From Deltaproteobacteria bacterium (GTDB lineage: Bacteria; Desulfobacterota; Binatia; Binatales; Binataceae), in NCBI GenBank assembly GCA_003135135.1, contig PLDK01000007.1, forward strand, positions 2,202 through 66,201: a stretch of DNA of 64,000 bases, given 5' to 3'. The notes beneath the pieces are model-generated. The model saw only the letters and a program-made list of their open reading frames with translations. It had not been told where the DNA came from and did no database searches. Below, one piece after another: positions 3,260-21,983 of the stretch. The number at the start of each line of letters is the position of its first letter. Position 1 is the stretch's first letter. The position numbers were made by a program, and so were the translations under genes.

Positions 3260-3470
3260 AACTAGCAACCATTGGTAGTATCCCCGCGGGCTCCACGCTC
3301 GGGCTTCCACCTTCAGGCTTGGCAAGTGGACGAATCGGCCGCCCGATGCTTGCGCGATGCCGTGTGTCTGATATTGTCAAAGACTGCGGCGTCGGCGGTT
3401 GCCGGTACTGTCGCGCAGCAAAACGCCGGTGTAATATGGCCCCGTTTCCGAATTTTTGGAGGTTCCAGCG

Positions 3471-4361
3471 ATGCCTGCTCGCTCGATATCGACTGCAAGC
3501 CTGACCTTCGGATTAGTCTCGATACCGGTCCGTTTGTTTCCGGCTACGAGTTCAAAATCGGTCAGGTTCAACCTGCTTCACGAGAAGGACAAGAGCCGTA
3601 TCCAGGAAAAGATTTTCTGTCCGGTGGAAGAAAAGATCATCGACCGCAGCGAGTTGGTCAGGGGCTATGAGATCGAGAAGGGCCGTTACGTAACCTTCAC
3701 CGACGAGGAATTGAAAAAGCTCGAAGCGCAGGCCGATCGCGCGATCGAAATAGAAGAGTTTATCCCGGTCACCGAGGTAGATCCGGTGTACTTCGAGAAC
3801 TCATATTTGCTCGGATGCGAACCTACTTCGGCAAAGGCCTACCATCTGCTCAAGGAAGCGATGACAAAAGCGGGGCGGGTCGGACTCGCCAAGTTTACGA
3901 TGCTGGGCAAGGAACGTTTGGTGCTTATCCGGCCGCATGATGATGGCCTGATGCTTCATACGATGTACTACGAAGATGAGATTCGATCTTTCAAGGAGAT
4001 CGATCACGGGGCCGACGCTCCGGTCAAAGACTCAGAACTCTCGCTCGCGCAGCGTTTGATCGCGGACCTTACCCAGAAGAAGTTCGAGCCGGCGAAATAC
4101 AAGGACAACTATCGCGAACGGGTAATAGAGGCGGCCGAGCAGAAACTCGCGGGACACGAGGTCTCTGAGCCTACGCCGGAAGCGCGCCGTGGCAATGTGA
4201 TCGACCTGATGAGCGCTTTGAAGGCCTCGCTCAAAAAGCGCGGGGTCGCATTCAACGCCGAAGCTCAAGAGGAATCCGCGAAATCGTCCAAAGCGGAACC
4301 GTCGGAGGCTCTGGAACGCAAGGCTCAGCCGAAGCGATCGGGTTCTCGCGGCGCACGCTAG
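3471..4361 (+). CDS. ku: Ku protein (NHEJ DNA-end-binding)
   Basis: MPARSISTASLTFGLVSIPVRLFPAT... is the canonical bacterial Ku N-terminus. ATG at 3471 is preceded by GGAGG; the track's TTG at 3456 is probably not the true start. Basic C-terminal tail. Confidence 0.9.
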   Translation: MPARSISTASLTFGLVSIPVRLFPATSSKSVRFNLLHEKDKSRIQEKIFCPVEEKIIDRSELVRGYEIEKGRYVTFTDEELKKLEAQADRAIEIEEFIPVTEVDPVYFENSYLLGCEPTSAKAYHLLKEAMTKAGRVGLAKFTMLGKERLVLIRPHDDGLMLHTMYYEDEIRSFKEIDHGADAPVKDSELSLAQRLIADLTQKKFEPAKYKDNYRERVIEAAEQKLAGHEVSEPTPEARRGNVIDLMSALKASLKKRGVAFNAEAQEESAKSSKAEPSEALERKAQPKRSGSRGAR

Positions 4362-4433
4362 CGTCTGCCGGTTGATTGGCGGCGCGGTCGCGGCCAGCCC
4401 GATCTCAGATAATTCGACGCGCGGCGTCCCCCG

Positions 4434-7169
4434 ATGTCGCTGAGTAAATACCGCGAAAAACGGCACGCCGAGCGAACTCCAGAGCCGTTCGGGCATACCG
4501 TCCCGACTGGCCGCTCGGCGACCGGCGGGATCTTCGTCATCCAGAAACACGCCGCGCGGCGGCTTCACTACGATTTCCGGCTCGAGATGGAAGGCGTGCT
4601 CCGCTCGTGGGCGGTCCCCAAAGGTCCTTCGCTTAATCCGGCCGACAAGCGGCTTGCGGTCGCAGTAGAGGATCATCCGCTCGAATACGGCGACTTCGAA
4701 GGGGTTATTCCGGAAGGCAACTACGGCGCAGGTTCGGTTATCGTCTGGGATCGCGGCGTGTACGGCGTTCTGGAGGGCGAGGGGGGAGCGGCGCAGGGGA
4801 TACGCAACGGCAAAGTAGATATCAATCTCCACGGCTTCAAACTTGGCGGAGCGTTTACGCTGGTGCGGACCGGAGGGCGCCGCAATACCGCCCCAAAGGA
4901 CAAGCAAAACTGGCTGCTGATCAAGAAACGCGACGAATACGCCACGTCAGCCGACGTCCTCGAGGAGCATCCCCGTTCGGTGCTGTCGGGGTTGACGATC
5001 GACGAGATGCGCGATGCGCCGTCGGTGGGCCGGAAAGTTACCAGCCGACTCGTACAAGCGAAGCTCCCGGAACTCGCAAGTCCGGTGAAACGCGCCGATT
5101 TTCCGCTGATGCTGGCCAAGCTCGGCGGCGATCCTTTTGATAGTTCCGGCTGGCTGTTCGAACTCAAGTACGACGGCGTGCGCGCGCTTGCGATTCGTGA
5201 CGGCGCGACCGCCCATCTATACGCGCGCAGTGGAACCGAGATTACCGCGCGCTATCCGGAAGTCGTCCTCGCCTTGAATTCGCTGCCGTACGAACGATTT
5301 GTCCTCGACGGCGAAATCGTCGCGCACGGCGACGATGGCCGTCCGAGCTTTCAGTTGCTGCAACGCAGGATGCATGTGAATGACACGCGCCAGATCGCGC
5401 GTCTGAGCTTCGCGGTTCCGGTCCGCTATTTTGTTTTCGATCTTCTCGCCTTCGATCGTTTCGACACGCGAACGCTGCCACTCGAAGAGCGCAAGCATCG
5501 CGTAAGTGAACTAATCCTCGGCGAAGGTCCGGTGCGCTATTGCGACCACGTAGTCGAGCGGGGCAGAAATTTCTACGCGGCGGTCGCCGAGAAGGGGCTC
5601 GAGGGAATCGTCGGCAAATTGCGCAAGTCACCTTATCGCGGAGCGCGAAGCGGCGATTGGCTGAAGATCAAATGCCCGCAGATCCGGCGATTCGTGATTG
5701 GTGGTTACACAGCCCCTGAAGGATCGCGGACTCATTTCGGCGCGTTGCTGCTCGGTCAATACGAATCCGATGGCGCACTCCGCTACACGGACAAGGTCGG
5801 CACCGGCTTCAATCGCGATACTCTGCGCAAGATCCATGCGATGCTCGAAGAGCGCGCGCAATCGGCATCGCCATTTCGCAAGGCCGCCCTCGATGAGCCC
5901 GCGCCTGCAAGGACTGCGCGTTTCGTGCGACCGGAACTTGTCTGCGAGGTCAGGTTCACGGAGTGGACGAACAATGGAGGCGTCAGGCATCCCAGCTTTC
6001 TGCGCCTCGTCGAGGGTGCCGATCCGCGCGAATGCCGTTACGAGGGTCCCGAGCGCGATTCCGACCCGCCGGCGATAGTCGCCGAGCCTCGGGACGATCG
6101 CGGACCCACCGAGAAACATGCGGGAGATCGCGGAGTAGCTATCAGGCAGGCTGCCGAAGCCAACGTTGATGCCAACTCGAATGACATCAAGAAGGACCGC
6201 GCGAGCGGAGCTGCCACAACCGTGTCTCATCCGGATAAAATCTTCTTTCCCAGGGCGGGTTACACGAAAGGCGACCTGGTCGCGTACTATCGCGCGATTT
6301 CGAAATGGATGCTGCCCTATCTCAAGGATCGGCCCGTGATGCTCGCGCGATATCCCGATGGTATCGCGGGCAAGACGTTCTATCAGAAGGATGCGCCCGC
6401 GTTTGTACCATCGTGGATTCGTACTGAAAAGATTTGGTCCGAAGAGTCGAAGCGCGAGATCGGCTACTTCATTCTCGACACCGAGGAGGCTCTTGCGTAC
6501 GTCGCAAATCTTGCCGCAATCACGATTCACATCTGGTCGTCGCGCATCACTCACCTGGAACGTCCCGACTGGCTGCTGTTCGATATCGATCCGAAAGGCT
6601 CGACCACGCGACTGGCGGTCCAGGTGGCGCGCGAGACCGCCGCGGTTCTGCGCGAGGTGGGCCTCGAGCCATGCCTCAAGACCTCGGGCCAAATGGGGCT
6701 TCACGTGGTGGTGGGATTGGCGCCGAAATATACCTACGAGCAGGCAAGGATGTTCTCAGAACTGGTTGCGGAAATCGTGGTGCAAAGGATTCCTAAAATA
6801 GCGACCATCAATCGAAACCCGCGCTCGCGACAGGGCCGCGTCTATATCGACTACCTACAACTCGGTCACGGCAAGACTATCGCCGCGCCGTTCTCGGTGC
6901 GGCCCCTGGAGGGCGCGCCGGTTTCGGCGCCGATGAAGTGGGCGGAACTGAAACCGGCGCTCGACCCATCGGTTTATAACATCAAAACGATCCTGCCCCG
7001 GATGACGCGGCTCAAGCGCGATCCATTCCTCGACGCGCTCGAAAAACACGCCGATCTCGAAAGCGCGCTTGCCGAGCTCGAAGGTCTTCTGAACAGGAAT
7101 GAAAATCGAACCGGAGCTCGTACTACCAGCGCCAAGCACGACTTGAGCCGACAGGCTCGCGATCTCTAG
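4434..7169 (+). CDS. ligD: multidomain ATP-dependent DNA ligase D (phosphoesterase - ligase - polymerase/primase)
   Basis: N-terminal 3'-phosphoesterase domain (LSKYREKRHAERTPEP...HYDFRLE). Ligase domain with adenylation motif I ELKYDGVRAL. C-terminal LigD Pol domain (..HPDKIFFPRAGYTKGDLVAYY...DIDP...). Immediately downstream of ku. Confidence 0.9.
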   Translation: MSLSKYREKRHAERTPEPFGHTVPTGRSATGGIFVIQKHAARRLHYDFRLEMEGVLRSWAVPKGPSLNPADKRLAVAVEDHPLEYGDFEGVIPEGNYGAGSVIVWDRGVYGVLEGEGGAAQGIRNGKVDINLHGFKLGGAFTLVRTGGRRNTAPKDKQNWLLIKKRDEYATSADVLEEHPRSVLSGLTIDEMRDAPSVGRKVTSRLVQAKLPELASPVKRADFPLMLAKLGGDPFDSSGWLFELKYDGVRALAIRDGATAHLYARSGTEITARYPEVVLALNSLPYERFVLDGEIVAHGDDGRPSFQLLQRRMHVNDTRQIARLSFAVPVRYFVFDLLAFDRFDTRTLPLEERKHRVSELILGEGPVRYCDHVVERGRNFYAAVAEKGLEGIVGKLRKSPYRGARSGDWLKIKCPQIRRFVIGGYTAPEGSRTHFGALLLGQYESDGALRYTDKVGTGFNRDTLRKIHAMLEERAQSASPFRKAALDEPAPARTARFVRPELVCEVRFTEWTNNGGVRHPSFLRLVEGADPRECRYEGPERDSDPPAIVAEPRDDRGPTEKHAGDRGVAIRQAAEANVDANSNDIKKDRASGAATTVSHPDKIFFPRAGYTKGDLVAYYRAISKWMLPYLKDRPVMLARYPDGIAGKTFYQKDAPAFVPSWIRTEKIWSEESKREIGYFILDTEEALAYVANLAAITIHIWSSRITHLERPDWLLFDIDPKGSTTRLAVQVARETAAVLREVGLEPCLKTSGQMGLHVVVGLAPKYTYEQARMFSELVAEIVVQRIPKIATINRNPRSRQGRVYIDYLQLGHGKTIAAPFSVRPLEGAPVSAPMKWAELKPALDPSVYNIKTILPRMTRLKRDPFLDALEKHADLESALAELEGLLNRNENRTGARTTSAKHDLSRQARDL

Positions 7170-7417
7170 CGCCCGGCACGGAGCAGAAGCGTTGGAGCTG
7201 CAAGGTTTAGTCCAGTCCCCCTCGTCGGGGGCCTTGGGGCCACTGCTCCAGGAGGCTTTAAATTGTTTCTTGCCAACAGAGAAATTGCCGGCATGTTGCG
7301 CACGAACTGCTCGAAAGACACTTTCTCCGGTGCCGTCAGATGAGTAAATGACGCCGCATCCGCGGGCTATTTCGGGAATTTGAGCGGAAGGTCCGCAGAG
7401 ATAGGGACTTGATGGCG

Positions 7418-7648
7418 GAGAGAGGGAGATTCGAACCACGAGACTCTTCGCGCATCCGTCCGCGAAATTCTGCCGGAGTTTGGCCCGGTATTCAGCCTTA
7501 AAACAAGCAACAGAGCTGCAGAGAATCTGTTCACCTTCGGTTCGGCTAGACTTCAGACCCGACGGCGGCGTTCACGCTCTTGGTACCCTAGGGTGTGTAA
7601 TATCTGCTAGTTTCAATGGGCGCTACGAGGTTCTAATCTCCCCCTCTC
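7418..7648. repeat. MITE-like element with about 20-bp imperfect terminal inverted repeats
   Basis: Left end gagagagggagattcgaacc (7418-7437). The reverse complement of the right end ggttctaatctccccctctc (7629-7648) is gagagggggagattagaacc, 18/20 identical. Non-coding, lower GC, in the 775-bp ligD-poxB intergenic region. Confidence 0.45.
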
Positions 7649-9698: not shown

Positions 9699-10200
9699 AG
9701 GTGACAGGGTTACCCGGCGTCGTGCCGAGCGCCGCGATTTCGTAGCGGTGCGCGACGATCTGGAAGAACAGATTGGCCTGCTCGCGGCTCATGTCGAGAT
9801 GGAAAAGAAGTCGGCGATGGAAAGGCGCGGGATAAAATCGCCCGACCGCGCCGAAGGCCGCGCGGGGTCTTGTATCTGCGCCAAATAGCCAGGCGGTAGA
9901 AGCGGTCGGAATTAAGCGCGTCGACGATGCCGGACAGCTTTACTTGGACTCGACTTGGGCTGTTCATCACGCGAGTGCATAGGCGGATTCCGTTGCAAGC
10001 CATTTTTTTCGGTAGCTGTGCCTTCTCAAAACCTAATCCGCGCGCACGGAGACGCAAAAGATCGCCCGGACGGCTCGTTTCCCAGCTGATTATTTCGAGG
10101 TGTCAGCCCTAGCAGGGACCGGCGTGATGAATTGTGGCGCGACTTTGCACTGACCGCGAGGTCTTGAGTCGCCCGCGTCAACCCGGCGGAAGCCGCGACG

Positions 10201-11538
10201 GTGAAACACATTTATGAGCGATATCTCGACCTCGGTTCCGTCCGGCTACTGAGGGGCAATTTGGAGCGCCACAGGATCGTCTCCAAAGTCCGGGTGTCGA
10301 AAAACGGCGTGCGATCGGGAGGCCGGCAATTTTCGCGCGGCGCTCTGTACCAGATGCTGTCGAACCCGATCTACCTGGGCGAAATTCGCCACAAAAAGGA
10401 ACGCCATCCGGGGCAACACGAGCCAATAGTGAGCCGCGAGCTCTGGGAGAACGTCCAGCAGCACTTGCGCGATCAGGCCGCCAAGCATCGCGAACGCCCG
10501 ACCAAGGCGCCGCACAGCCCGCTTGCGGGTAAACTGTTCGACGAGAGTGGCGAGCCCCTATATGTGCAGGGCGCGGTAAAAGGCGCTCGCCATTATCGCT
10601 ACTACGTCTCGCGCGGATTGGTCAGAGGGTCGGTACAAGATGACCAGCGCGGGTGGCGCGTAGCTGCACCGGAGCTTGAGCGCGCAGTTCGCGCTGCGAC
10701 TCAGCGGATTCTCGGTGATCGAGCGGCGATCGCTGGAGCGATTGAAGAACTCAACATCGATGCGAGCCGGTTGCCTTTGATATTCAAGGTCGCCGAAGCC
10801 TGGATTCAAAGCCTGCGGTCCGAAGCGGAAGCTGCACCAGTACTTACCCGGCTGATCGAACGCGTTCGACTCAAGCAGGACGGCATCGACGTTTCAATCA
10901 AATTGCCGATCCCATCCGATGAAGGGCGTGACGTCGCGACTCCGAACGAACTTGCGCTAACTCGATTCGTCCCGATGCGGATGAAGCGGCGCGGCGTTGA
11001 GATGCGTCTGATCATTGATGGTGACGCCACACCAACGGCTCGCGTCGATCTACCCCTGCTCAACGCGACCGCCCGCGCGTATCGATGGTCCAATGATCTG
11101 CTGACGGGCCGGGCGCGGTCGAGCGGCGAGATCGCGAGGCGAGAACATCTTACCGGCCGTCACGTGCGGCGCGTGATGCGGCTGGCGTTTCTGGCGCCCA
11201 GGATCGTCGAGGCGATCGCCACAGGCCGCCAGCCTGCGGACCTCTGCACTCTAGCAATGACCCAAAGAATCGAGCTGCCCCCCGCTCTGGAGCGCTCAGG
11301 AGCGAGCGCTCGACATCCGATAGACTCACGCGGGCGGAGTTGCTTGCGTTTAGGGGTACTTCCCGAGTACGTGATTCCCGCAAGATGTCGGCCGGTTCGC
11401 AGATGGACATGCCAAAATCGCGAACAGAGAATTTTGAGCGATTTTTGCCGTCAGCCGCGGCCGGTGGCATTCTCCCGGTCCACCGACGCGCGTGAATCGC
11501 GCCCCACGCGCCGATTTCATCACTTCTTCAAAATGTAG
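10201..11538 (+). pseudogene. large serine recombinase lacking the N-terminal catalytic resolvase domain (truncated or degraded)
   Basis: The recombinase-domain signature KHIYERYLDLGSVRLLRGNLERHRIVSK...IYLGEIRHK... is present. The frame is closed by TGA about 30 nt upstream (about 10168), and no intact Ser-nucleophile domain could be found in any frame of 9700-10200. Confidence 0.6.
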
Positions 11539-11598
11539 GGAAACATGCCAGACTGTGTGGCGGATGACGCAGTCTGATGCGAACTGCTCTCTGCATAT

Positions 11599-11805
11599 AA
11601 TTCCCTGATCATCAGGGAAAATACAGGGAATTTTCGCGATTTCGGGCGTTTTGGACCCGATTTCCAGCCTAAAAGTCCTTGTCTTCTCTCGGATTTTCGT
11701 CGGAATTCCCTACTCAACCGAACAGGGAATTATTCTGAAGGAACAGGGAATCTTTTCGACGTAACAGGGAATCTGATCCGGAGAACAGAGAAAGCCTCTT
11801 ACCGG
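11599..11805. repeat. iteron-like array of CAGGGAA(T) motifs with a 21-bp periodic core
   Basis: ACAGGGAAT direct copies at 11624, 11722, 11743 and 11764, and a degenerate ACAGAGAAA at 11785; the last four are spaced exactly 21 bp apart. A CAGGGAA copy sits at 11613, and inverted copies aattccctg / gaattccct at 11599 and 11703. Lies in the 560-bp gap between convergent genes. Confidence 0.6.
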
Positions 11806-12098: not shown

Positions 12099-15000
12099 CT
12101 ACGTCGTCCCCGCGGCGTCCGCCGTGACGAGCTTCAGCCGTGCGCTGCCATAGAGCGTGTACATGAGACCGAGCGGGTTGTTCTTCGCCAGCAGCAGGCG
12201 TCGCATGCGCAGCATGGCATCGCCTGCTGATTGACCGCCGATCAGTTCTTGGAGAAAAGACTTCGCCGCTTCCACGGCCAGCATCTCCACGATCGTCGTT
12301 TCGGTTCCGACGACGGCCGCCGCATGTTTCGCCCGAATGAACTCCCTGATGAACTCCGACGGCGCATACGGGTCGAATCCCACAGTGCTGCATCCGTTAA
12401 TGAAGACCAGCGGCGCATGAGTCCACACGGGCTTGCCGCCAAAGTCGGCGGGGAGGAGGACGTCCTCGACCACGCCCCTAAATCCGAGTCCGAAGTCAAG
12501 AGTCGACCCAAGGTCCTTCCCGTCCTTCGCCACGGTCTTGGCCAAGGCATGACAGTATAAGTAGACGATGTCAGGATCGTTGTTCTTCATGAGCGTTCGC
12601 ACGGCGGCGCGGCCGGTGCCTGACGTGACCTTCGCGTGCTTCAGGATCCCTTGCTCCAGATCCGCGACGTGTTTCGTGCCGAAGTCGAGCTTCTCGTTGT
12701 AGCCCGCCACCACGTTGATCTGCTCGCCGGCCTTGATCTCCTCGACGAGGCCCGTCGACTTCTCGCCGAGCCCATCGACCTTCTGCGCCGGTACGTCAAT
12801 AGGAAACATGAAGCCCCAAAAGCGGCGCGGACAGATCACCGTTTCCTCCGTGTAGACTGTCTTCCCGTTTCGACACAGTTCGTCGTTGTCGGCTTTGTTG
12901 AGAAGACATCCCGCGCCGCCACATTCGACGGCCGGCATGTTACCATTGGCGTCTGGCATCGGCGCTCGGCAGACTGACGGCGGCGCGGTCGTCTTGTCCA
13001 AAAAGACCACCCGGTCATAGATCATCGACCACGGAATCACGTTTGAAAAATCGAGGTGCGCCGCATGAATGCCGTCGCCCTTCTCGATCAGGCTTCGGAT
13101 CCTGTCCTGATCGTTCGGGTCGGGAACGAGCGCGTTGTAGATCCGCCAACCAGCGTAGGCGATGTCCGCCAGAACGTCACAAAGCTCCTGCGGGTCGCCG
13201 GCGTTTTCCGTGTTCTGGTACGACAGGTAGCGATAGGCCACGCCGCGTTGCGATGCCGTCTCCAGCGTCGTTCGCGCCCATTCGACGATCTTCGAAATGT
13301 CAACCTTGCCGACGCGGAAAAGGTCGTTGCCCTTGATCGTCGTGACCTTGTCGCCGGCGCTGTCGTTGACCACGACCGTCAGGCCTCGCGGGCTTCCGTG
13401 AGCACCGTCGGCAATGTTTGCGGTGGTGCCGTATTCGAGGCGCGTGATGTAGCCGGAGGTGCCGATCTTCTTTGCATCTGACGGCGGGACGCTGAGCGCA
13501 CGCGCCATGGCCGAAGCCACACTCCGCGGCGCATCCTCTAGCGCGGCGGCGACGAAAAACGACTGCACGACATTGTCGCGGTGATAGATCGTGAAGCGGA
13601 GCCGCGCCACGCCGGGCACGGTTGTCGGTTTGAACGGGCGAACGGCGAAGGCGATGAGATCGGACGGCTCTTCGCGAGGAAGATAGAACTCCTGCACCGG
13701 ATCTCCGATGACGTCGAAATCGATTCCCGTGACGCCGATTTCCATCCACGCGCCGTCGCCGTCCCACCGCACCTTCTCTTCGAGGAAGCTCGTGGGACCG
13801 AGCGAAACGATCAACTCGTCCTTCGGCCCGATCTGCACGCAGAAGTGAACCGCCTCACCGACTCGAAGACGAGCCTTCCGCTGCGGGATCTTCTTCAGTT
13901 TGCCGTCGGATCCGGTCGCGTAGAACGCGGAGTTGACCTGCCGCGGTACGCGGCGGGGCATCACCGCCTTTGGATCGCGGACGGCGTTCACCAGCGATCG
14001 CACGTCGGCGATCTTGGCCGCCAGCGGCAGCATGCCGCCCGACTCGTGGTCTTCGTAGTGATACGCGGCCGAACTGCGGACGATGTCGTCTATCTTCGTG
14101 GAGAAGATGTTCATCGCGCCTCTCCGGTTCATCGAGCGGAAGGGCTGCGATTTCGTGACAATGTACCCAGCGAGATCATCGACCGAGAGAACTTCCCCGC
14201 TCCCGCGCAGTTGCTCGAATTCGTAGCCGAGATCGATGCCCACCAAACCGTGTTGTGGCAGCTTCGCCGCCAACGAGTGACCGAATCGCTGCGCGCGCGA
14301 TCCCCACAGGTCGTCGAATCGAACGCCCTTCGCGTCGATGACGCCCATTTCCGTCGCCGACTCGACGATGGTGGATCTGATGGCGGCGGCGTCGATCGAA
14401 GGTCTATTCGGGATCTTCTGAGGAGAGACGAAGTGCGTGACGTAAGCCTTCTTGACCGAGGAAGCAACGCGAGGTTCGGAAAGCTCGCGAGCGACCACTG
14501 AATACCGCAGCGCCTCCTCGCCGCCGGCTCCCGCAAACAGCTCGCTTCTGGCGATCGCCGCGTGAATCCAGTCGAGCGGCCGGTCATGCGAAATAGCTCC
14601 GTACAACGTGTGGCTGGCGAGCGGGTCGTTGCCAAGGAAAAGGACCGCCGGCCCTCCCCGATCGATTATGGCCTGTGCCAGCCGGCGAAGCACCGGCGGC
14701 ACCGATTGGTGTCCGTCGAGGACGATCAGCCGGGTTTGAAAACGATCGGCGAAGCGGAGGAACCAGCCTGTGGTGCCGGCCGTGCTGTCGTGAGCGTTCG
14801 TGAGGAAACTCGTGGCGGCCGGCAGATCGTGTACGTGAAGGATGTCGACCGTGGCCCAAGACTCGCGCCGGGCGAAACTCTCGACGTCGAACAGCGTCGT
14901 GCGGGCGTCGATGTAGGCGTTTCCGCGAGCAGTGCCGTGAAATGTAGCGTCGATGGCCGCCGGAACCACCGGCGTTCCGTCTACCTCGAGCACGCGGATC

Positions 15001-15353
15001 GGGAACGTGATCGGGATCTGCAAGACGCGCGGACGAACCGGCGAAGTTCGAACGACGAGGCGACCGCCTACCTCGATTGATTCCCACTCCATCGCTGCCC
15101 AGTCGCGGACTCCGACCTCGACGGTTACTCGCTCCAGCGTCGATGTCTGCGAATGAGTCACTTCACTTGCCGAAATCGACTTACGAACGGCGTCACTCAG
15201 TTCCTTTGGAATTGCGGAGGCATGATCGATGAGATTGCGCGGCGTTCGGGTCTCCCATTTCGTTCCTTCTGGAGAGGCGATGGTCAGGACGGCGTCGCTG
15301 CCGTCGGCAAACAGGCGAACCGCAAAATCACGACGTTGATATATCGTCGACAT
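12099..15353 (-). CDS. 1084-aa protein with a C-terminal CHAT (caspase-like His/Cys) protease domain and an uncharacterised about 800-aa N-terminal region
   Basis: The C-terminal motifs ...DIVYLYCHALAKT... (His about aa 935) and ...PLVFINGCSTVGFD... (Cys about aa 988) match the CHAT/caspase catalytic dyad and spacing. A Cys cluster (ECGGAGC...CRNGK...ICPRRF) precedes the domain. No P-loop found. The ATG at 15351-15353 lies 3 nt from the stop of the upstream gene. Confidence 0.7.
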   Translation of the reverse strand: MSTIYQRRDFAVRLFADGSDAVLTIASPEGTKWETRTPRNLIDHASAIPKELSDAVRKSISASEVTHSQTSTLERVTVEVGVRDWAAMEWESIEVGGRLVVRTSPVRPRVLQIPITFPIRVLEVDGTPVVPAAIDATFHGTARGNAYIDARTTLFDVESFARRESWATVDILHVHDLPAATSFLTNAHDSTAGTTGWFLRFADRFQTRLIVLDGHQSVPPVLRRLAQAIIDRGGPAVLFLGNDPLASHTLYGAISHDRPLDWIHAAIARSELFAGAGGEEALRYSVVARELSEPRVASSVKKAYVTHFVSPQKIPNRPSIDAAAIRSTIVESATEMGVIDAKGVRFDDLWGSRAQRFGHSLAAKLPQHGLVGIDLGYEFEQLRGSGEVLSVDDLAGYIVTKSQPFRSMNRRGAMNIFSTKIDDIVRSSAAYHYEDHESGGMLPLAAKIADVRSLVNAVRDPKAVMPRRVPRQVNSAFYATGSDGKLKKIPQRKARLRVGEAVHFCVQIGPKDELIVSLGPTSFLEEKVRWDGDGAWMEIGVTGIDFDVIGDPVQEFYLPREEPSDLIAFAVRPFKPTTVPGVARLRFTIYHRDNVVQSFFVAAALEDAPRSVASAMARALSVPPSDAKKIGTSGYITRLEYGTTANIADGAHGSPRGLTVVVNDSAGDKVTTIKGNDLFRVGKVDISKIVEWARTTLETASQRGVAYRYLSYQNTENAGDPQELCDVLADIAYAGWRIYNALVPDPNDQDRIRSLIEKGDGIHAAHLDFSNVIPWSMIYDRVVFLDKTTAPPSVCRAPMPDANGNMPAVECGGAGCLLNKADNDELCRNGKTVYTEETVICPRRFWGFMFPIDVPAQKVDGLGEKSTGLVEEIKAGEQINVVAGYNEKLDFGTKHVADLEQGILKHAKVTSGTGRAAVRTLMKNNDPDIVYLYCHALAKTVAKDGKDLGSTLDFGLGFRGVVEDVLLPADFGGKPVWTHAPLVFINGCSTVGFDPYAPSEFIREFIRAKHAAAVVGTETTIVEMLAVEAAKSFLQELIGGQSAGDAMLRMRRLLLAKNNPLGLMYTLYGSARLKLVTADAAGTT

Positions 15354-15356
15354 GGG

Positions 15357-17525
15357 TCACCTTCGAAGCGCGGCCACTCCGGCATGCGAGAACTGATCGA
15401 TGGCGAAACCCCAGACGAACGCGGCGAGATAGTTCGCCGGTCCTCCCCATACCAGGTTGTCGATCCAGAGCACCTGTAGTCCGACAAGACATGCCGCGAC
15501 GACGACGATGACGCTGACGATGATGTCGTATCGTCCGATCTGCCGGGCCGTCGTCTTCTCTGTTCCCGACTGATCGAGTTCCGACGCCGGCGGACCGTAG
15601 CCAAAGGAACCGATCATGTCGAACGACGGCCCCCCTGGCGCCGCACCCAGTGCGGTCGCCGCAAGCGAAGCCAGCGCAGCCGACATCGTACCCATAGTCT
15701 GACCGGGGGCGGCGATGGCCTTTTCGTAGAGCTTCGCGGCCGCGTCGAGTTTGTTCAATCCGTCGGCGATGCTTTGCGCGACCGCCTCCTTCGCCGCTTC
15801 GGCGGCATCGATGATCGGCTTTCGCTTCGCGTCATCCGTGATGCTCGCTGCGGCGGATTGCTCAATGGCGTTGCTCAATCCCATGACGTACGGAACCGCC
15901 GCGGCGAAGAGTCGCGTCGTGGCATCGTCCGGATCCTTGGTCGCGGAGACAATCGTCGCCGCCGTGGTGGTCTGCCGCTTCAAAGCGTCCCATTCGTTCG
16001 GATTCATTCCCGCGGGCGACGTCGTCGAGCCGGACACGCGTTTGATTAATTCGTCGGCGAGGATGATCGCGTAGCGAAGGCGCGCCGCCTCCACCAACCG
16101 GATAGCTTCCTCGATATTGTCGTGCGCAAGCTTCTCAGACGCGGCCTCGAGGGAGGTGGCGATTTCATGCACGCTCGCTTGTGGATACTGCGCAAGCTTG
16201 GCAGTGAGATCGTCGACCTGCTTCTTCAGCCTTTCCTTGATCTTGGTTCGGATTTTCTGTGGAAGCGCGCTGACGTCGCTGATGGCCGATTGCACCTTGG
16301 TGGCATCCGGATTTGGGTTCTTGAACGCGGCCTCGGCATCTTCCAGCGTCGGCATGAGTTCGTCGCGCACTTCGAGCGGCCGGACCTCGCGCACCTGCTT
16401 GTGCAGTTGAATCCAGGAGCCGAGCGCCGGCACGATCAGTTCGAACACATCGAGCTCGGTCGTAATCGCGCGCCGCCGCGTTTGCGCGTCATCCCAGCGC
16501 TGCTGGACGTTTTTGCGAACGACGCCGACGAGCTCCTCGGCGTCGGCGTCACCAGTGGCGCGTGCCGATTCGTCGCGCAGCATCAACAGAATGGTGGTCA
16601 TTCGCTGCTGGGCGAGCAGCCGTGGACGGAGCGTACTGCCGTAGATCAGTACCACCAGCGAAAGGCCCACGCCAACGACGATGAAGAAGATCGCGACCCA
16701 GAAGGGGTCGCGGACGTAGATCGTGAACGGCTTACTGATCGGCTGGAAACCGGCAGGCGCGAAGCGGATGGTGCCGTCGTACCTTCCGGGCGAGGCGAGA
16801 CCGTCGATCCCCAGCTCAAGCGGCGTCGGCTCACCCGGCACGACCGTGATGGGGTCCGGCACATTTTGCAGATCGAGCTTTATATTCGAGACTAGCGATC
16901 CGGATACCGAGTCGGCCTTCGGCTTGCGCGTCACGTCGTCGAGGAACGGCCGGCTCACTCTGACCTCGGCGCCGGTAGCGTAGATCGTCATTGTCAGAGG
17001 GACATGCAACGACGTGCGGTATGGACAGGAAGTTCGCTCCACCGCCGCGATGTCGCTGATGGCGATCGGCGGAGCGGCGGTCGTCCGAGCGATCTCGATC
17101 GAAAAGCGGAGGAGCGTATTCGGGGCCCGCAGCCGAGCTTTATTGTTCCTCGGAACGGTCCGCTGCGAGATCGTGACCGTTCCCGTGTAGGTGCCGGCGT
17201 TCAAGAGCCTGACCCTTAACTTCACCGTCAGCGGGACCCCAACGGCGATGTCGAACGGCCCCTTCGGATCGGATTCAGGCACGGCAGCGTCTCCCGCTGG
17301 TGAGTGGAGATCGGTGCCCTGAACCTCGACGCCCCTCAGAACACTGGTTGTCTGGTTCTCGATCGTCAGAGAAATGGCGAGATCGGGGGTGGTAACGCCA
17401 GCAAACTTTAGCTCCTTCGACGCGGGGAGCTCTAGCACAGCAACCGGCTCTTTCGTGGCCGCGTTCGCGAATAGCGCCGTCGACACGAGAAGCGTGCAGA
17501 TCAACGGCACAAGAACTCTCGACAT
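15357..17525 (-). CDS. large membrane protein: signal peptide, about 330-aa beta-rich extracytoplasmic region, one TM, about 300-aa cytoplasmic helical region, two C-terminal TMs
   Basis: Start MSRVLVPLICTLLVSTALFANA with GGAGGA 4 nt upstream (ATG at 17523-17525); the track ORF extends further upstream without support. TM segments: WVAIFFIVVGVGLSLVVLIYG, IIVSVIVVVAACLVGLQVLWI, YLAAFVWGFAI. Stop/start nearly abutting the CHAT gene. Confidence 0.6.
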   Translation of the reverse strand: MSRVLVPLICTLLVSTALFANAATKEPVAVLELPASKELKFAGVTTPDLAISLTIENQTTSVLRGVEVQGTDLHSPAGDAAVPESDPKGPFDIAVGVPLTVKLRVRLLNAGTYTGTVTISQRTVPRNNKARLRAPNTLLRFSIEIARTTAAPPIAISDIAAVERTSCPYRTSLHVPLTMTIYATGAEVRVSRPFLDDVTRKPKADSVSGSLVSNIKLDLQNVPDPITVVPGEPTPLELGIDGLASPGRYDGTIRFAPAGFQPISKPFTIYVRDPFWVAIFFIVVGVGLSLVVLIYGSTLRPRLLAQQRMTTILLMLRDESARATGDADAEELVGVVRKNVQQRWDDAQTRRRAITTELDVFELIVPALGSWIQLHKQVREVRPLEVRDELMPTLEDAEAAFKNPNPDATKVQSAISDVSALPQKIRTKIKERLKKQVDDLTAKLAQYPQASVHEIATSLEAASEKLAHDNIEEAIRLVEAARLRYAIILADELIKRVSGSTTSPAGMNPNEWDALKRQTTTAATIVSATKDPDDATTRLFAAAVPYVMGLSNAIEQSAAASITDDAKRKPIIDAAEAAKEAVAQSIADGLNKLDAAAKLYEKAIAAPGQTMGTMSAALASLAATALGAAPGGPSFDMIGSFGYGPPASELDQSGTEKTTARQIGRYDIIVSVIVVVAACLVGLQVLWIDNLVWGGPANYLAAFVWGFAIDQFSHAGVAALRR

Positions 17526-17804
17526 GAGCTCCTCCAAAATATGGACGCGGCGCTTAGCTGATGTGCGCTGTGTCTGGGAGCCGCGGCTGCAATCTAGCCC
17601 ACGCGGCCATTGGGATTCAAATCTGTGTGCGGTTGACAAAACCGGTCGCCAATTGCGTGTAAATACCAGAGTGACAGTACATGATCGGGCCGCTCTCGAA
17701 CGCGCTTGGTGCCGGCGGAGAGGCGCGCCGTCTCGTCGAGACACTCGCGATAGCTGGCATGATCTTCTCAAGACATACGACGGTCTATTGGTCTAGTCAT
17801 TGTC

Positions 17805-19250: not shown

Positions 19251-20960
19251 TCACTCGAGCGACCTCAGAAAACTCCCCACAAAAAGCTTGATCTGCCACT
19301 CGAGCATCGCTTTCACCCATAATCGTTCGAGGACGGGTAAGGTATTGACGGCCGAGTCGATGATCGTGTTGAGGCGATCCTGCACTCGCTGGATCTGCGC
19401 AGGGTTGATTTCCGGAGCAGGAGGCACAGGCTGAAGCTGCTGGTTCGGCAATATCAGGAATTGCCGCGTTTCTTTGGTTTGCACCGCCTGCCAGACCTCC
19501 AGAGCGTCTGCGACACCTTGCGCGAAATCGTGCATGCGAATGCCAACGTCGAAGAAGCCGCTGAACGCGTATAGGGGATCGCCGGCAAGCTTCATTTTTG
19601 GACTGACGAGAATAGGCTCGAATGCGACCTTGTCGGTCACATCCATCGCAAGATCGATTAGCAGACCAAATTCGATGAATAGCTGCTGTCGGTCCGGCGG
19701 CAGGCTCCGTGCCCCGCCATAAGCGACGGGAGCTTCCACTTGGAGGTCGGAAATAAAGTGCGCGCGGAAGTAGTTCATTTGCTCCTCACTCAGGCCACGC
19801 GCGGCGCCGAGCTTGTTGACCATTTCCGGCAGCCACGAAGGAGTCGTTAGATCGCCCGAAGTGACATGGATGTAATATTCCAGTTGTGCGACCAGGTCCT
19901 GACGTATCTTTACGCGGCGATTCACCTCGGGGATTCCGCGTACCCCCGACTGCTGTACTTCCTCGAGCGCTCCGCCGAGTATGCGGCCGACCATCTGAAA
20001 TGGATCGACGTTCAGCATGTTGGTGCCATCCAGGAATTGCGGATTCGCCGGCCAGTCGTCTGGGTCTTGACCCGGTTCGGGTTCGATCATGAAGTAGCGC
20101 CGTTCTGTATCGCTAAAGTCGTCAGCATCAGCTCCCCAGTCGATCTCGTGCGCGAGGTTTATCGCCTGCCCGACGGGGTCGTTGTCGTACAACCCGCCGT
20201 CCGTGAAGTAGTCTAGGTTCCAGTTCTTCTGATCGTCCATGAGGGCGAGAGCTCTCGGCGCGAATGCGAAGGGAAAAGCTCCACAGGCGATGGCGCATGC
20301 TATCATTCCGGCAAATGCGCCATTGGAATCGAGAAGAGTTCCGCTCGCGGGTTGTGAGATCGACGATACACCGTCTCCTGTGAAGGTTGCTCCAAGTACG
20401 CCCTCCGTGTTTGGCTTCACACGGATGTCAAATCGCGAAAGAGCAGCGTGCTCGTTGAAAAAGAATTCTGTGCCGGTAAAGGTGGGCACGGTCTGCAGGC
20501 CTTGGCCCAGCCGCGAATGCGTCAACGCCAGAGCGATGTGAGCGCCCCCCGAACTTAATGGGTCACGTAAAACAGAATGGCATGCGACTGTGTTGGGATA
20601 TTTGATGTAGTCACTTGCTATTTTGTCGATTGCGCCCGATACGAATAGAAAATTCGGAGAAAGCCCGGCTCCGTTCTGTGGATCCAATATGTCGAGTGAG
20701 ATCTGATCAACCCACACCGTCTTCAGCACATTCTTGTCCGGCGCCTGGCCGGCAAGTGAACTGTTGAGCAGGACCATGGCGAGCAGGGTCGCCGTCATTC
20801 CCCCCGCGCTGGCCCCGGTGAGCGCATCTATGTACCACTTCACTGAGTTATTTCGATTGTTATAGTCCAAGAGAAATAGCGTCTCAGCGATGACGCCAGC
20901 CTCGTATGCTCCCAAGGAAACACCACCTTTTATTGCGATCGCCAGCCTACGCTCCGGCAT
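19251..20960 (-). CDS. patatin-like phospholipase (Ser-Asp dyad)
   Basis: Oxyanion/Gly motif IKGGVSLGAYEAGV, nucleophile motif LTGASAGGM (GxSxG), catalytic Asp motif FTDGGLYDNDP. 569 aa with a long C-terminal extension. Confidence 0.8.
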   Translation of the reverse strand: MPERRLAIAIKGGVSLGAYEAGVIAETLFLLDYNNRNNSVKWYIDALTGASAGGMTATLLAMVLLNSSLAGQAPDKNVLKTVWVDQISLDILDPQNGAGLSPNFLFVSGAIDKIASDYIKYPNTVACHSVLRDPLSSGGAHIALALTHSRLGQGLQTVPTFTGTEFFFNEHAALSRFDIRVKPNTEGVLGATFTGDGVSSISQPASGTLLDSNGAFAGMIACAIACGAFPFAFAPRALALMDDQKNWNLDYFTDGGLYDNDPVGQAINLAHEIDWGADADDFSDTERRYFMIEPEPGQDPDDWPANPQFLDGTNMLNVDPFQMVGRILGGALEEVQQSGVRGIPEVNRRVKIRQDLVAQLEYYIHVTSGDLTTPSWLPEMVNKLGAARGLSEEQMNYFRAHFISDLQVEAPVAYGGARSLPPDRQQLFIEFGLLIDLAMDVTDKVAFEPILVSPKMKLAGDPLYAFSGFFDVGIRMHDFAQGVADALEVWQAVQTKETRQFLILPNQQLQPVPPAPEINPAQIQRVQDRLNTIIDSAVNTLPVLERLWVKAMLEWQIKLFVGSFLRSLE

Positions 20961-21002: not shown

Positions 21003-21983
21003 TCAATAGGAGAAAGGCAGTGTGTTGCTATTTAGACCGTTGACTGTGACACCGATTTGAACGCGTTTGCCCGCAACCCATGCGGGTCCAGAGAGATTCA
21101 GCGCCGGAAGATTCAGGGTAATCTCGCTGTCAGCCCACGCACCCGACGGCACCGGCGTACCGTCAAGCGTGACCGTACTCCCGCCCGTAGACGCGCCGAA
21201 TCCATTCCCGAGAATCTTGATCGCCAAGGGCTTGCCGCTGCCGGTTGAGGGAGAAAGCCCTGTCACGACAGGGACGCTGCTAAAAGTGAGTTTGTTGAAA
21301 ACGTAGGTGCCGTGGCCGATTCCCATCAATACTGCGAGCGCCTCATCGATATCAGGGAGGCTTTTCAGGCCCGGCTTTGGCCCGTAAACGTGCTCGTAGA
21401 CGCTTACCAGAAAAATTCCCAATGCAACGAATGTCCATGCCAGCATCTGGAACTTGACCAGATCGGGATCACCGCCGTCGTTCGTAATCAGATCCGAAAG
21501 GCTTTGCCCGTCGGGCGCGGTCGGTTTGGCGACCTTGCCGGAACTTACGTAACTGCTGGTGATTCCCTTTGCGGCCACTGCGGTAGCACTCGAAAAGCCC
21601 ATCGCCAGCAAGAGCCCCGGTGGAAAGGTGTCGATCGGCTCGAATGTCTGCTGTTTGACTCTGGCCACGGTGATCACGACATAAGCGAAGATCGCGACAG
21701 CGGTCCACAGCCAGAACTGAAACTTTGATGTACTAGCGCGTCCGTCCTCACCCTCGACGAGTTTCCACGGGTGATTTCCGGTAATTGCGAGATGGAGCAA
21801 CCACAGCAGGACCATTGCGATGAAGCCGCATATGAATGGCCGATCGAGGTACCATTGCAAAGTCTGATCACGCCAGCGCTCGGGCACCAGCGCAATCATC
21901 GCACCCACGGAGGCCGCGACCAGCAGCGACAGGGCTAAACCCGCTTGCGTAGGCAGGTTTTTCGGGCTCATTGTCACCACCAC
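21003..21983 (-). CDS. polytopic membrane protein with a C-terminal IPT/TIG (Ig-like) domain
   Basis: Four or five predicted TMs. The C-terminal PVVTGLSPSTGSGKPLAIKILGNGFGASTGGSTVTLDGTPV... is a typical IPT/TIG beta-sandwich. Alternative ATG start at 21971 (MSPKNL). Confidence 0.55.
   Translation of the reverse strand: MVVTMSPKNLPTQAGLALSLLVAASVGAMIALVPERWRDQTLQWYLDRPFICGFIAMVLLWLLHLAITGNHPWKLVEGEDGRASTSKFQFWLWTAVAIFAYVVITVARVKQQTFEPIDTFPPGLLLAMGFSSATAVAAKGITSSYVSSGKVAKPTAPDGQSLSDLITNDGGDPDLVKFQMLAWTFVALGIFLVSVYEHVYGPKPGLKSLPDIDEALAVLMGIGHGTYVFNKLTFSSVPVVTGLSPSTGSGKPLAIKILGNGFGASTGGSTVTLDGTPVPSGAWADSEITLNLPALNLSGPAWVAGKRVQIGVTVNGLNSNTLPFSY

Follow-up and report, generated by a model that had tools for sequence, protein, structure and literature searches.

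A short array of direct repeats with a 21-bp period is found at positions 11704-11805 of the 64,000-nucleotide stretch of Binataceae DNA analysed here (contig PLDK01000007.1, hereafter the window), directly after a gene for a large serine recombinase (LSR) whose catalytic domain is missing. The repeat array is confirmed as genuine, and we hold with high confidence that it is the repeat-bearing part of a non-coding module of ~250 bp, located on the P' side of the phage-type attachment site (attP) in small (~6.5-7 kb) LSR elements that insert at the CCA ends of tRNA genes. What is left of such an element in the window is very probably a 1.6-kb fossil (10177-11805), in which the recombinase gene is dead, attP has stayed unrecombined and the repeats are retained. 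The locus has the following features, listed from left to right.

10177-11320, + strand: LSR pseudogene, corresponding to residues 182-562 of 562-aa homologues (tblastn and Pfam).
11321-11557, + strand: spacer from the LSR to the crossover core, ending in the P arm of attP and nearly invariant in five relatives, in attP and attR forms alike (alignment A3).
11549-11576, no strand: imperfect palindrome CAGACTGTGT-GGCGGATG-ACGCAGTCTG, kept in the family, which holds the crossover core TGGCGG (11558-11563).
11564-11598, + strand: P' half of attP (ATGACGCAGTCTGATGCGAACTGCTCTC...), common to the window, to the relatives L242 and L244 and to all family members.
11599-11631, no strand: proximal repeat cluster, with one inverted copy (11600-11608) and two direct copies (11612-11620 and 11623-11631).
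11632-11703, no strand: spacer between the proximal and distal clusters, kept in length and not in sequence.
11704-11805, + strand: distal cluster, i.e., the 21-bp array, with inverted AATTCCCT (11704-11711) followed by direct units at 11722, 11743, 11764 and 11785, the last one degenerate.

Read directly in the sequence, the exact 9-mer ACAGGGAAT starts at 11722, 11743 and 11764, in 21-bp steps with no deviation, and the unit at 11785 reads ACAGAGAAA. The original prediction, made from the letters of the window, had described four tandem 21-bp units at these positions; its coordinates and period stand, with three units being exact and the fourth degenerate. The further direct and inverted CAGGGAA copies that it had noticed upstream, at 11599-11631 and in the region of 11703, are indeed present, as direct copies at 11623 (ACAGGGAAT) and 11612 (TCAGGGAAA) and as inverted copies at 11608..11600 (TCAGGGAAT) and 11711..11704 (AGGGAATT). 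Two motif-like copies, GTAGGGAAA at 11534 and ACAGAGAAT at 11424, are located left of the module repeats. Tandem Repeats Finder attributes to the array a period of 21 and 3.5 copies. The exact 9-mer occurs four times in 64 kb, always inside 11623-11772, versus 0.28 +/- 0.49 times in 100 shuffles, none of which gave four copies, and six of the nine CAGGGAA copies of the 64 kb sit in 11601-11771. The local GC content is 43-48% at the repeats compared to about 60% around them, the lowest 60-bp window reaching 43%. The possibility that the array belongs to a coding sequence was also examined, and no open reading frame (ORF) located there is shared by the relatives, which have different flanks on either side.

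The recombinase gene that precedes the repeats is clearly decayed. When the LSR protein P0002 is used as a tblastn query, 90% identity is found over 10177-11283 and the final 15 residues are encoded in another frame at 11276-11320, with a frameshift near 11280, which explains why the annotated ORF (10201-11538, + strand) overruns to 11538. The homology begins abruptly at 10177, corresponding to residue 182, and the Resolvase catalytic domain is therefore lost; in Pfam searches, this ORF matches only the Recombinase domain (PF07508). The closest full-length homologues (83-90% identity, 559-562 aa) harbor both the Resolvase and the Recombinase domains, and their named carriers are Candidatus Binatus or Binataceae, which makes a Binatota bacterium the probable host of the window. 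ORFs, Pfam and tblastn thus agree with the earlier description of the flanks as convergent genes, one of them a recombinase devoid of catalytic domain. The proposal that the array marks a decayed integrative element is likewise borne out by the truncated recombinase (residues 182-562 of 562), its late frameshift and the disappearance of the other element genes from the window, in which no DUF2924, DUF3489, terminase or methyltransferase sequence was detected. Since only the dead recombinase gene, attP and the repeats remain, the array, although well preserved, probably has no partner protein in the window.

The best-supported step of the analysis comes from relatives whose LSR is 83-90% identical to that of the window. 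The segment 11317-11564, comprising the post-LSR spacer, the left arm and TGGCGGA, is common to five close relatives, and the sequences diverge right after TGGCGGA (alignment A3). Beyond this point, the loci L239, L240/L241 and L243 present a complete tRNA-Ser on the opposite strand, i.e., an attR, whereas the window, L242 and L244 continue with ATGRCGCAGTC...CTCTC, the P' half of an unrecombined attP. Because the relatives share the sequence up to TGGCGGA and are then followed by either tRNA-Ser or P', the window, as judged from these alignments, holds the P-core-P' of an element inserting at the CCA end of tRNA genes. The core TGGCGG is the reverse complement of the tRNA-Ser 3' end CCGCCA, and the palindrome surrounding it starts 229 bp past the end of the LSR pseudogene. 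In another branch, the LSR is followed by a segment X, by TGGTGG and then by the reverse complement of a complete tRNA-Met or tRNA-Lys (L190, L194, L200, L154), and conservation among the solo copies found in genomes starts at GGTGG, as expected for attL. The locus thus combines an adjacent LSR gene, a break of identity at a short core with the host target beyond it, and an imperfect inverted repeat. The array starts beyond the ~65-bp P-core-P' shared by all attP forms, and hence probably outside the recombinase recognition site.

Several other identities were considered for this region and rejected. No tRNA or tmRNA gene was detected at the module by ARAGORN or Rfam, and the tRNA-like look of the core is due to its target being a tRNA 3' end. 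Arm-type sites of a lambda-like tyrosine integrase do not fit elements that encode a serine recombinase with Resolvase and Recombinase domains only. A multi-site transposon end of the Tn7, Mu or Tn5053 kind was discarded given that there is one module per locus, that no second inverted end is seen in the window or its relatives, and that the sites occur in both orientations. A promoter-like sequence, TGGACA-17-GAGAAT, was also noticed at 11404-11432 (+ strand) in the spacer between the LSR and the att core; this stretch shows no variation among five relatives, and the promoter-like site is directed across the core. Once the element is circularised, transcription from it would enter the repeats and the packaging genes described below, a possible coupling of excision and expression.

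The array forms the right part of a module (11548-11798 in the window) present at more than 60 loci in Alphaproteobacteria, Binatota-like metagenome-assembled genomes (MAGs) and small IMG/VR contigs. The family was first found by a pattern scan of one genome per species, in which its members display an inverted AATTCCCTAC, about 10 nt, and then three or four GAACAGGGAAT spaced by 21-22 bp. The hosts include Sphingomonas, Devosia, Filomicrobium, Brevundimonas, Reyranella, Shimia, Pseudolabrys and further Alphaproteobacteria. The majority of hits of this first scan were (GGGAACA)n heptamer repeats, mostly cyanobacterial, that matched the pattern by chance and are not related to the array; long tandem repeats of this type were seen in cyanobacteria, Acidobacteriota and Gemmatimonadota (L009, L030, L095 and many others).

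When flanks are compared across the family, conservation reaches about 170 bp left of the array, and no conserved right-hand boundary was found. The module successively comprises the palindrome GACTGCGT-GGTGGCGG-ACGCAGTC, the sequence TCGAACCNGTCTC, the proximal trio (one inverted and two direct copies), a spacer of ~70 nt, and the distal inverted copy with the tandem array. An nhmmer profile built from 16 members matches the window at 11548-11798 (E = 9e-51), with one copy per locus. In about 30 non-redundant members, the offsets of the motif copies from GCAGTC of P' are near-invariant, at +33 (inverted), +44, +56, +137 (inverted), +154, +175, +196 and sometimes +217, and an extra motif-like copy lies across the palindrome, about 41 bp away in the family and 33 bp away in the window. 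The second proximal and the first distal copies are separated by 97-99 bp throughout the family, and the fraction of majority bases is 0.52 in the spacer versus 0.66-0.79 in the flanking parts of the module.

In about 14 of the 22 genome loci, the module stands alone and is followed by ordinary genes on its right. Such solo copies, consisting of the core half, P' and the repeats, were observed in the chromosomes of L012, L014, L028, L045, L054, L074, L077, L085, L091, L110, L118 and L134; their right neighbours are, e.g., alcohol dehydrogenase, M23 peptidase, glutaryl-CoA dehydrogenase or TauD-type genes, with no element genes in the stretches covered. In L014 (1874-1937 and 3072-3244), the module is split at profile positions about 64/63 by a ~1.1-kb insertion that encodes a 366-aa ORF and is probably an insertion sequence.

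In a pattern scan of IMG/VR, the module was located near the ends of small contigs of 4-7.6 kb. According to ORF clustering, Pfam and PHROGs, the intact elements (~6.5-7 kb) encode six genes: ParB-MTase, in which a ParB-N domain is fused to an N6/N4 DNA methyltransferase; DUF5681, a 138-aa protein whose gene is directly upstream of, and overlaps, the TerL gene; the large terminase subunit TerL (Terminase_6C, phrog_38); DUF3489; DUF2924; and the LSR. DUF2924 invariably precedes the LSR, and in most cases DUF3489 does so too; a scan based on the DUF2924 protein added 80 further loci with the same cassette. Two arrangements are encountered, with the module either right after the LSR and before ParB-MTase (L182, L188, L195-L197, L199, L216, also L135 and L090) or at the extreme left end of the contig with the LSR at the right end (L160, L163, L166, L169, L205, L231, L128). 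In most intact elements the repeats are located 140-1000 bp upstream of ParB-MTase, the gene for DUF5681 (a protein resembling a small terminase subunit, TerS) and TerL, in the same orientation, and the module keeps its core outermost regardless of the orientation of the neighbouring genes.

No gene for a replication initiator (Rep) or primase was found in any intact ~6.5-7-kb element, nor were capsid, portal or tail genes found in these units. They are thus small integrative units that combine an LSR and att junctions with genes for TerL and a TerS-like protein and have no structural genes, as is seen in phage satellites; their presence in IMG/VR contigs is the only hint of packaging by a helper phage. 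The small viral contigs carry no direct terminal repeats, as looked for in a test for circular genomes. One of them, L133 (7.1 kb), exhibits a perfect 83-nt inverted repeat at 1-83 and 7018-7100; the att core adjoins one copy, and a tRNA-like 3' half adjoins the other. This structure is either a genuine palindromic junction or an artefact of assembly. More distant elements, with 43-60% identity in DUF2924, have no recognisable array upstream of ParB-MTase and harbor an extra ORF there instead.

Tandem DUF2924-LSR cassettes were also observed in L154/L177, L185, L186, L201, L202, L208, L209 and L240, at distances of 2.4-2.66 kb (8.4 kb in L240), the second DUF2924-LSR pair being 41-46% identical to the first. 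The presence in L154 of a tRNA 3' half between the cassettes suggests serial insertion at the same target. Regarding the proteins themselves, the C-terminal segment of the LSR has a helix-turn-helix look by eye and no match in Pfam, and no relatives with a solved structure were found for DUF2924, DUF3489 and DUF5681.

The association of the repeats with one or the other set of genes was addressed by covariation, i.e., by comparing the pairwise similarity of module sub-regions with that of each protein (Spearman r, 300 label permutations) among 16-25 related loci. The core plus P' tracks the recombination genes, with r of 0.49 for the LSR, 0.68 for DUF2924 and 0.40 for DUF3489, values reached in none of the 300 permutations. 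The repeat region tracks the terminase genes. For the TerS-like DUF5681, r is 0.35 with the proximal sites (1/300 permutations), 0.50 with the spacer (0/300) and 0.49 with the distal array (0/300), and for TerL it is about 0.3 with the three parts (5-6/300). The same three parts give r of about 0 (-0.05 to 0.19; 6-174/300) with the LSR, DUF2924 and DUF3489. They give 0.10-0.18 (19-59/300) with ParB-MTase, which thus follows the repeats weakly although its gene lies between them and the DUF5681 gene.

Exchange of the motif points in the same direction. In L242 and L244, the LSR is 83-85% identical to that of the window and the P arm, core and P' are the same, and an inverted GTCAACC with six or seven GGTTGAC then replaces CAGGGAA. 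GGTTGAC repeats likewise occur in L282, which has the same LSR family, core and P', and those of L242 and L282 accompany a non-homologous small protein and a different TerL family. Similarly, L166 and L133 are 82-90% identical in the recombinase block and 35-51% identical in TerS, TerL and ParB-MTase, and their module subtype differs. A wide scan for GGTTGAC was mostly unspecific, its informative hits being L282, of the element type, and a few phage contigs. Among the latter, GGTTGAC/AGTTGAC arrays were seen directly upstream of ParB-MTase genes in L348 (5880-5940) and L265 (4325-4445), and in L348 the array is followed by ParB-MTase, TerS (phrog_57), TerL (phrog_15) and a portal gene. Repeat arrays heading ParB-MTase/terminase modules may thus be a more general phage feature.

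As the core plus P' tracks the LSR genes, the repeats track the terminase genes and the motif can be swapped with no change in the LSR, the attachment region is bipartite: on the evidence of these correlations, the ~65-bp LSR attP belongs to the recombination genes and the repeat region to the packaging genes. The LSR was accordingly dropped as the reader of the repeats, given the GGTTGAC swap next to an unchanged LSR and att site and the lack of covariation. The earlier idea of an arm-type recombinase-binding array was right as to position, since the array abuts a recombinase attP, and probably wrong as to the protein that reads it, the motif being exchangeable and showing no covariation with the recombinase block.

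We tentatively favour, with somewhat less than even confidence, the view that the repeat clusters of live elements form a pac-like recognition site for the element's own DNA-packaging machinery. The recognition site would consist of the three proximal and the four to five distal copies, phased every two helical turns, with the length-conserved spacer of ~98 bp between them. Several small terminase subunits (DUF5681, TerS-like) would bind the copies on one face of the DNA and position TerL, and the element DNA would then be packaged into capsids provided by a helper phage. The neighbouring methyltransferase may modify the repeat sites or help to read them. The terminase genes are beside the module in most intact relatives, their orientation and position varying in L131, L143, L145 and L157.

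Known packaging sites offer analogies for such a signal. In the pac site of phage P1, clusters of hexamers are found on either side of a ~90-bp centre beside the terminase genes, under the control of adenine methylation by a phage methylase (Dmt; Dam sites in the pac hexamers), and lambda cosB contains inverted and direct terminase-binding repeats (R-sites). By analogy, the module would resemble them in its two clusters of short, mixed direct and inverted repeats around a centre of ~90-100 bp, in the proximity of terminase genes and a methyltransferase, and in its covariation with terminase proteins. On the other hand, its motif is CAGGGAAT compared to TGATCA/G in P1, it is fused at a fixed distance to a recombinase attP, which is the case neither in P1 nor in lambda, and it is known from sequence alone.

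A number of observations weigh against a packaging site. DUF5681 can be called TerS-like only by its size and position, and the comparison of its AF2 model (pLDDT 67) with PDB and BFVD gave only unspecific helical matches. The correlations are moderate, are drawn from 16-25 related loci, and may reflect shared ancestry rather than recognition. The modules of L140/L163 and L215 come without TerS, no terminase gene was detected in the 64 kb of the window, and many genome copies (the 14 or so mentioned above) are solo. The motif and the type of TerS are not matched one to one, since GGTTGAC also accompanies another TerS family in the phage contig L348, nor do the ParB-MTase subtypes follow the repeat motif. 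Finally, the constant spacing between the att core and the repeats, together with the motif-like copy of the P arm, would be in keeping with a recombination complex. Because of this counter-evidence, the rival explanations retain real weight.

According to a first one, the repeats would be accessory recombination sites at which DUF2924, DUF3489, the C-terminal segment of the LSR or a host protein builds a complex of fixed geometry that controls integration versus excision, in the manner of the accessory sites of res or the arm sites of lambda attP. The geometry of the module speaks for such sites, as the repeats abut the P' half-site at the same distances from the core (+33, +44, +56, +137, +154, +175 and +196) in about 30 members despite the drift of the spacer, a motif-like copy lies across the core (about 41 bp; 33 bp in the window), and the core is outermost in the module whatever the orientation of the neighbours. 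A similar design is known from the res sites of Tn3, gamma-delta and Sin, in which a crossover site has extra protein-binding sites on one side with a fixed geometry; however, a single recombinase binds all the subsites of res, whereas here the repeat motif is not that of the core half-sites, can be exchanged and shows no covariation with the recombinase. The half-sites of the palindrome (GACTGCGT) are indeed unlike the repeat motif, the repeat region does not covary with the LSR, DUF2924 or DUF3489 (r about 0), and GGTTGAC replaces the motif while the LSR, P arm, core and P' stay. To our knowledge, characterised LSRs use sites of ~50 bp together with protein-binding directionality factors, not arm sites, which also counts against this explanation. 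We regard it as unlikely, though deserving attention.

We give the same low credence to a module acting as the operator of the packaging operon or as a loading site for ParB-MTase, where a repressor or activator of the element or helper, or the ParB-N protein, would set the expression of ParB-MTase, TerS and TerL. Its position 140-1000 bp upstream of these genes and in the same orientation in most intact elements would be appropriate, as would the arrays directly upstream of ParB-MTase-TerS-TerL-portal in phage contig L348 and the conserved promoter-like site of the LSR/att spacer, which points across the joint. However, the module is downstream of these genes or inverted relative to them in L145, L131, L143 and L157, and extra genes separate it from ParB-MTase in L166, L188, L205, L216 and L231. 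Moreover, covariation with ParB-MTase, the nearest gene, is weak (0.10-0.18), and the ParB-MTases found with GGTTGAC arrays share 27% identity, which is no more than they share with those of the CAGGGAA type (28-34%), so that the subtype does not follow the motif.

The original prediction had also proposed iterons of a plasmid origin. An initiator would then bind the repeats and melt the adjacent DNA, allowing the excised element to replicate. The period of the direct repeats (21-22 bp), their number (three or four) and the accompanying inverted copies are reminiscent of the iteron origins of pSC101, R6K and RK2, and the local drop in GC content (43-48% vs. about 60%) and the conservation of the module family across many hosts would agree with an origin. 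Nevertheless, this explanation is very improbable. A Rep, initiator or primase gene was looked for among the dozens of intact ~6.5-7-kb relatives, whose six genes are all accounted for, and none was found; no DnaA box (up to 1 mismatch) is present near the array, and there is no truly AT-rich unwinding stretch, the lowest 60-bp GC being 43%. Plasmid and phage records likewise gave no match to the region or to the module of a relative. The linkage of the module to an att site and to terminase genes distinguishes it further from iteron origins, and an origin would not be expected to covary with terminase proteins, as the repeats do.

Lastly, an RNA encoded by the region, either of the protein-sponging CsrB/RsmZ type with repeated A(C/N)AGGGA motifs, of which ACAGGGAAU is reminiscent of the CsrA binding consensus, or another small RNA, is hardly credible: the + strand folds somewhat better than shuffles (z = -2.6) because of the inverted motif copies, but no Rfam family matches even at a permissive threshold, the motif copies keep fixed positions in the DNA and lie on both strands, no promoter or terminator frames the array, and the module is tied to a DNA recombination site.

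Returning to the packaging site that we favour, it may be extended into a fuller scenario, which is possible and rather doubtful. The array would then be the pac signal of undescribed and widespread phage satellites, hosted by soil Alphaproteobacteria and Binatota, that lack a capsid and carry terminase genes. Being welded to the P' arm, this signal would form one extreme end of the integrated element, and recombination at the core could reshuffle a "recombination half" and a "packaging half."

The attachment site itself has clear counterparts among LSR attP sites (phiC31, Bxb1, A118, PLE Int), with which it shares an adjacent LSR gene, an imperfect palindrome around a short core, att junctions recognized by comparison, and integration next to or into a conserved host gene. 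The LSR sites known to us are about 50 bp long and have no flanking repeat arrays. In this family, by contrast, P' always comes with 200 bp of phased repeats, integration takes place at the CCA end of tRNA genes, and DUF2924 precedes the recombinase. The elements as a whole resemble phage satellites, i.e., SaPI/PICI with their own TerS, P4, PLE and marine VEIMEs, which are also small integrative elements with terminase-type genes and no capsid or tail genes, PLE and some VEIMEs using serine recombinases. They differ by associating TerS-like, TerL and ParB-MTase genes and by lacking genes for replication, regulation or capsid remodelling, and they are known from genes alone. Marine VEIME satellites, moreover, are mostly tyrosine-integrase elements with another gene content (PMC9618062).

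A plasmid search with the TerL protein returned only distant terminases of phage-plasmids, and full-text literature searches on the domain combination and on satellite-type descriptions retrieved no paper describing this gene set or module. The element family is thus apparently widespread and undescribed, and the phased repeat region welded to P' as well as the tRNA CCA-end target appear to be new. Its wider value resides in the elements themselves, which are very compact, target tRNA genes with a serine recombinase, possess terminase genes of their own and occur in dozens of metagenomic contigs and many genomes. If the repeats are a packaging signal, the family would offer a simple system for the pairing of a private pac site with a private terminase in satellites, and would show how functional halves are swapped between elements by recombination at a shared att core. 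The defined attP/attB pairs (tRNA-Ser, tRNA-Met and tRNA-Lys ends) could also interest collectors of serine integrases for genome engineering. The array of the window is a fossil by which a dead mobile element (10177-11805), next to an unrelated gene block, can be dated and delimited; it should not be annotated as an origin.

This gene block, located on the opposite strand, starts after ~290 bp to the right of the array and is not related to the element remnant. Its first gene, convergent with the pseudogene (12099-15353, - strand; 1084 aa), has no Pfam match, and identical DNA is present in four metagenome/MAG contigs, including PMAR01000022.1 (GCA_003152635.1). Together with a second large gene of about 722-804 aa, also without Pfam match, it occupies 12099-17771 (- strand), and the 1084-aa protein exhibits, by eye only, His/Cys motifs recalling caspase-like (CHAT) proteases. 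The block continues to about 25000 and also holds a patatin-like gene (19251-20960), a TIG-domain gene (21003-21983) and an HTH_3 regulator.

Although ARAGORN found no complete tRNA anywhere in the 64-kb window, a tRNA-Ser-like 3' half (TGGCGGAGAGAGGGAGATTCGAACC... on the + strand) is present at 7412-7465 (- strand), between LigD and a TPP enzyme gene, and may be what remains of an att site used by another island with a similar target. Also to the left of the remnant, at 3456-7169, lies a pair of genes for non-homologous end joining, Ku (PF02735) and LigD (LigD_N, ligase and Prim-Pol domains).

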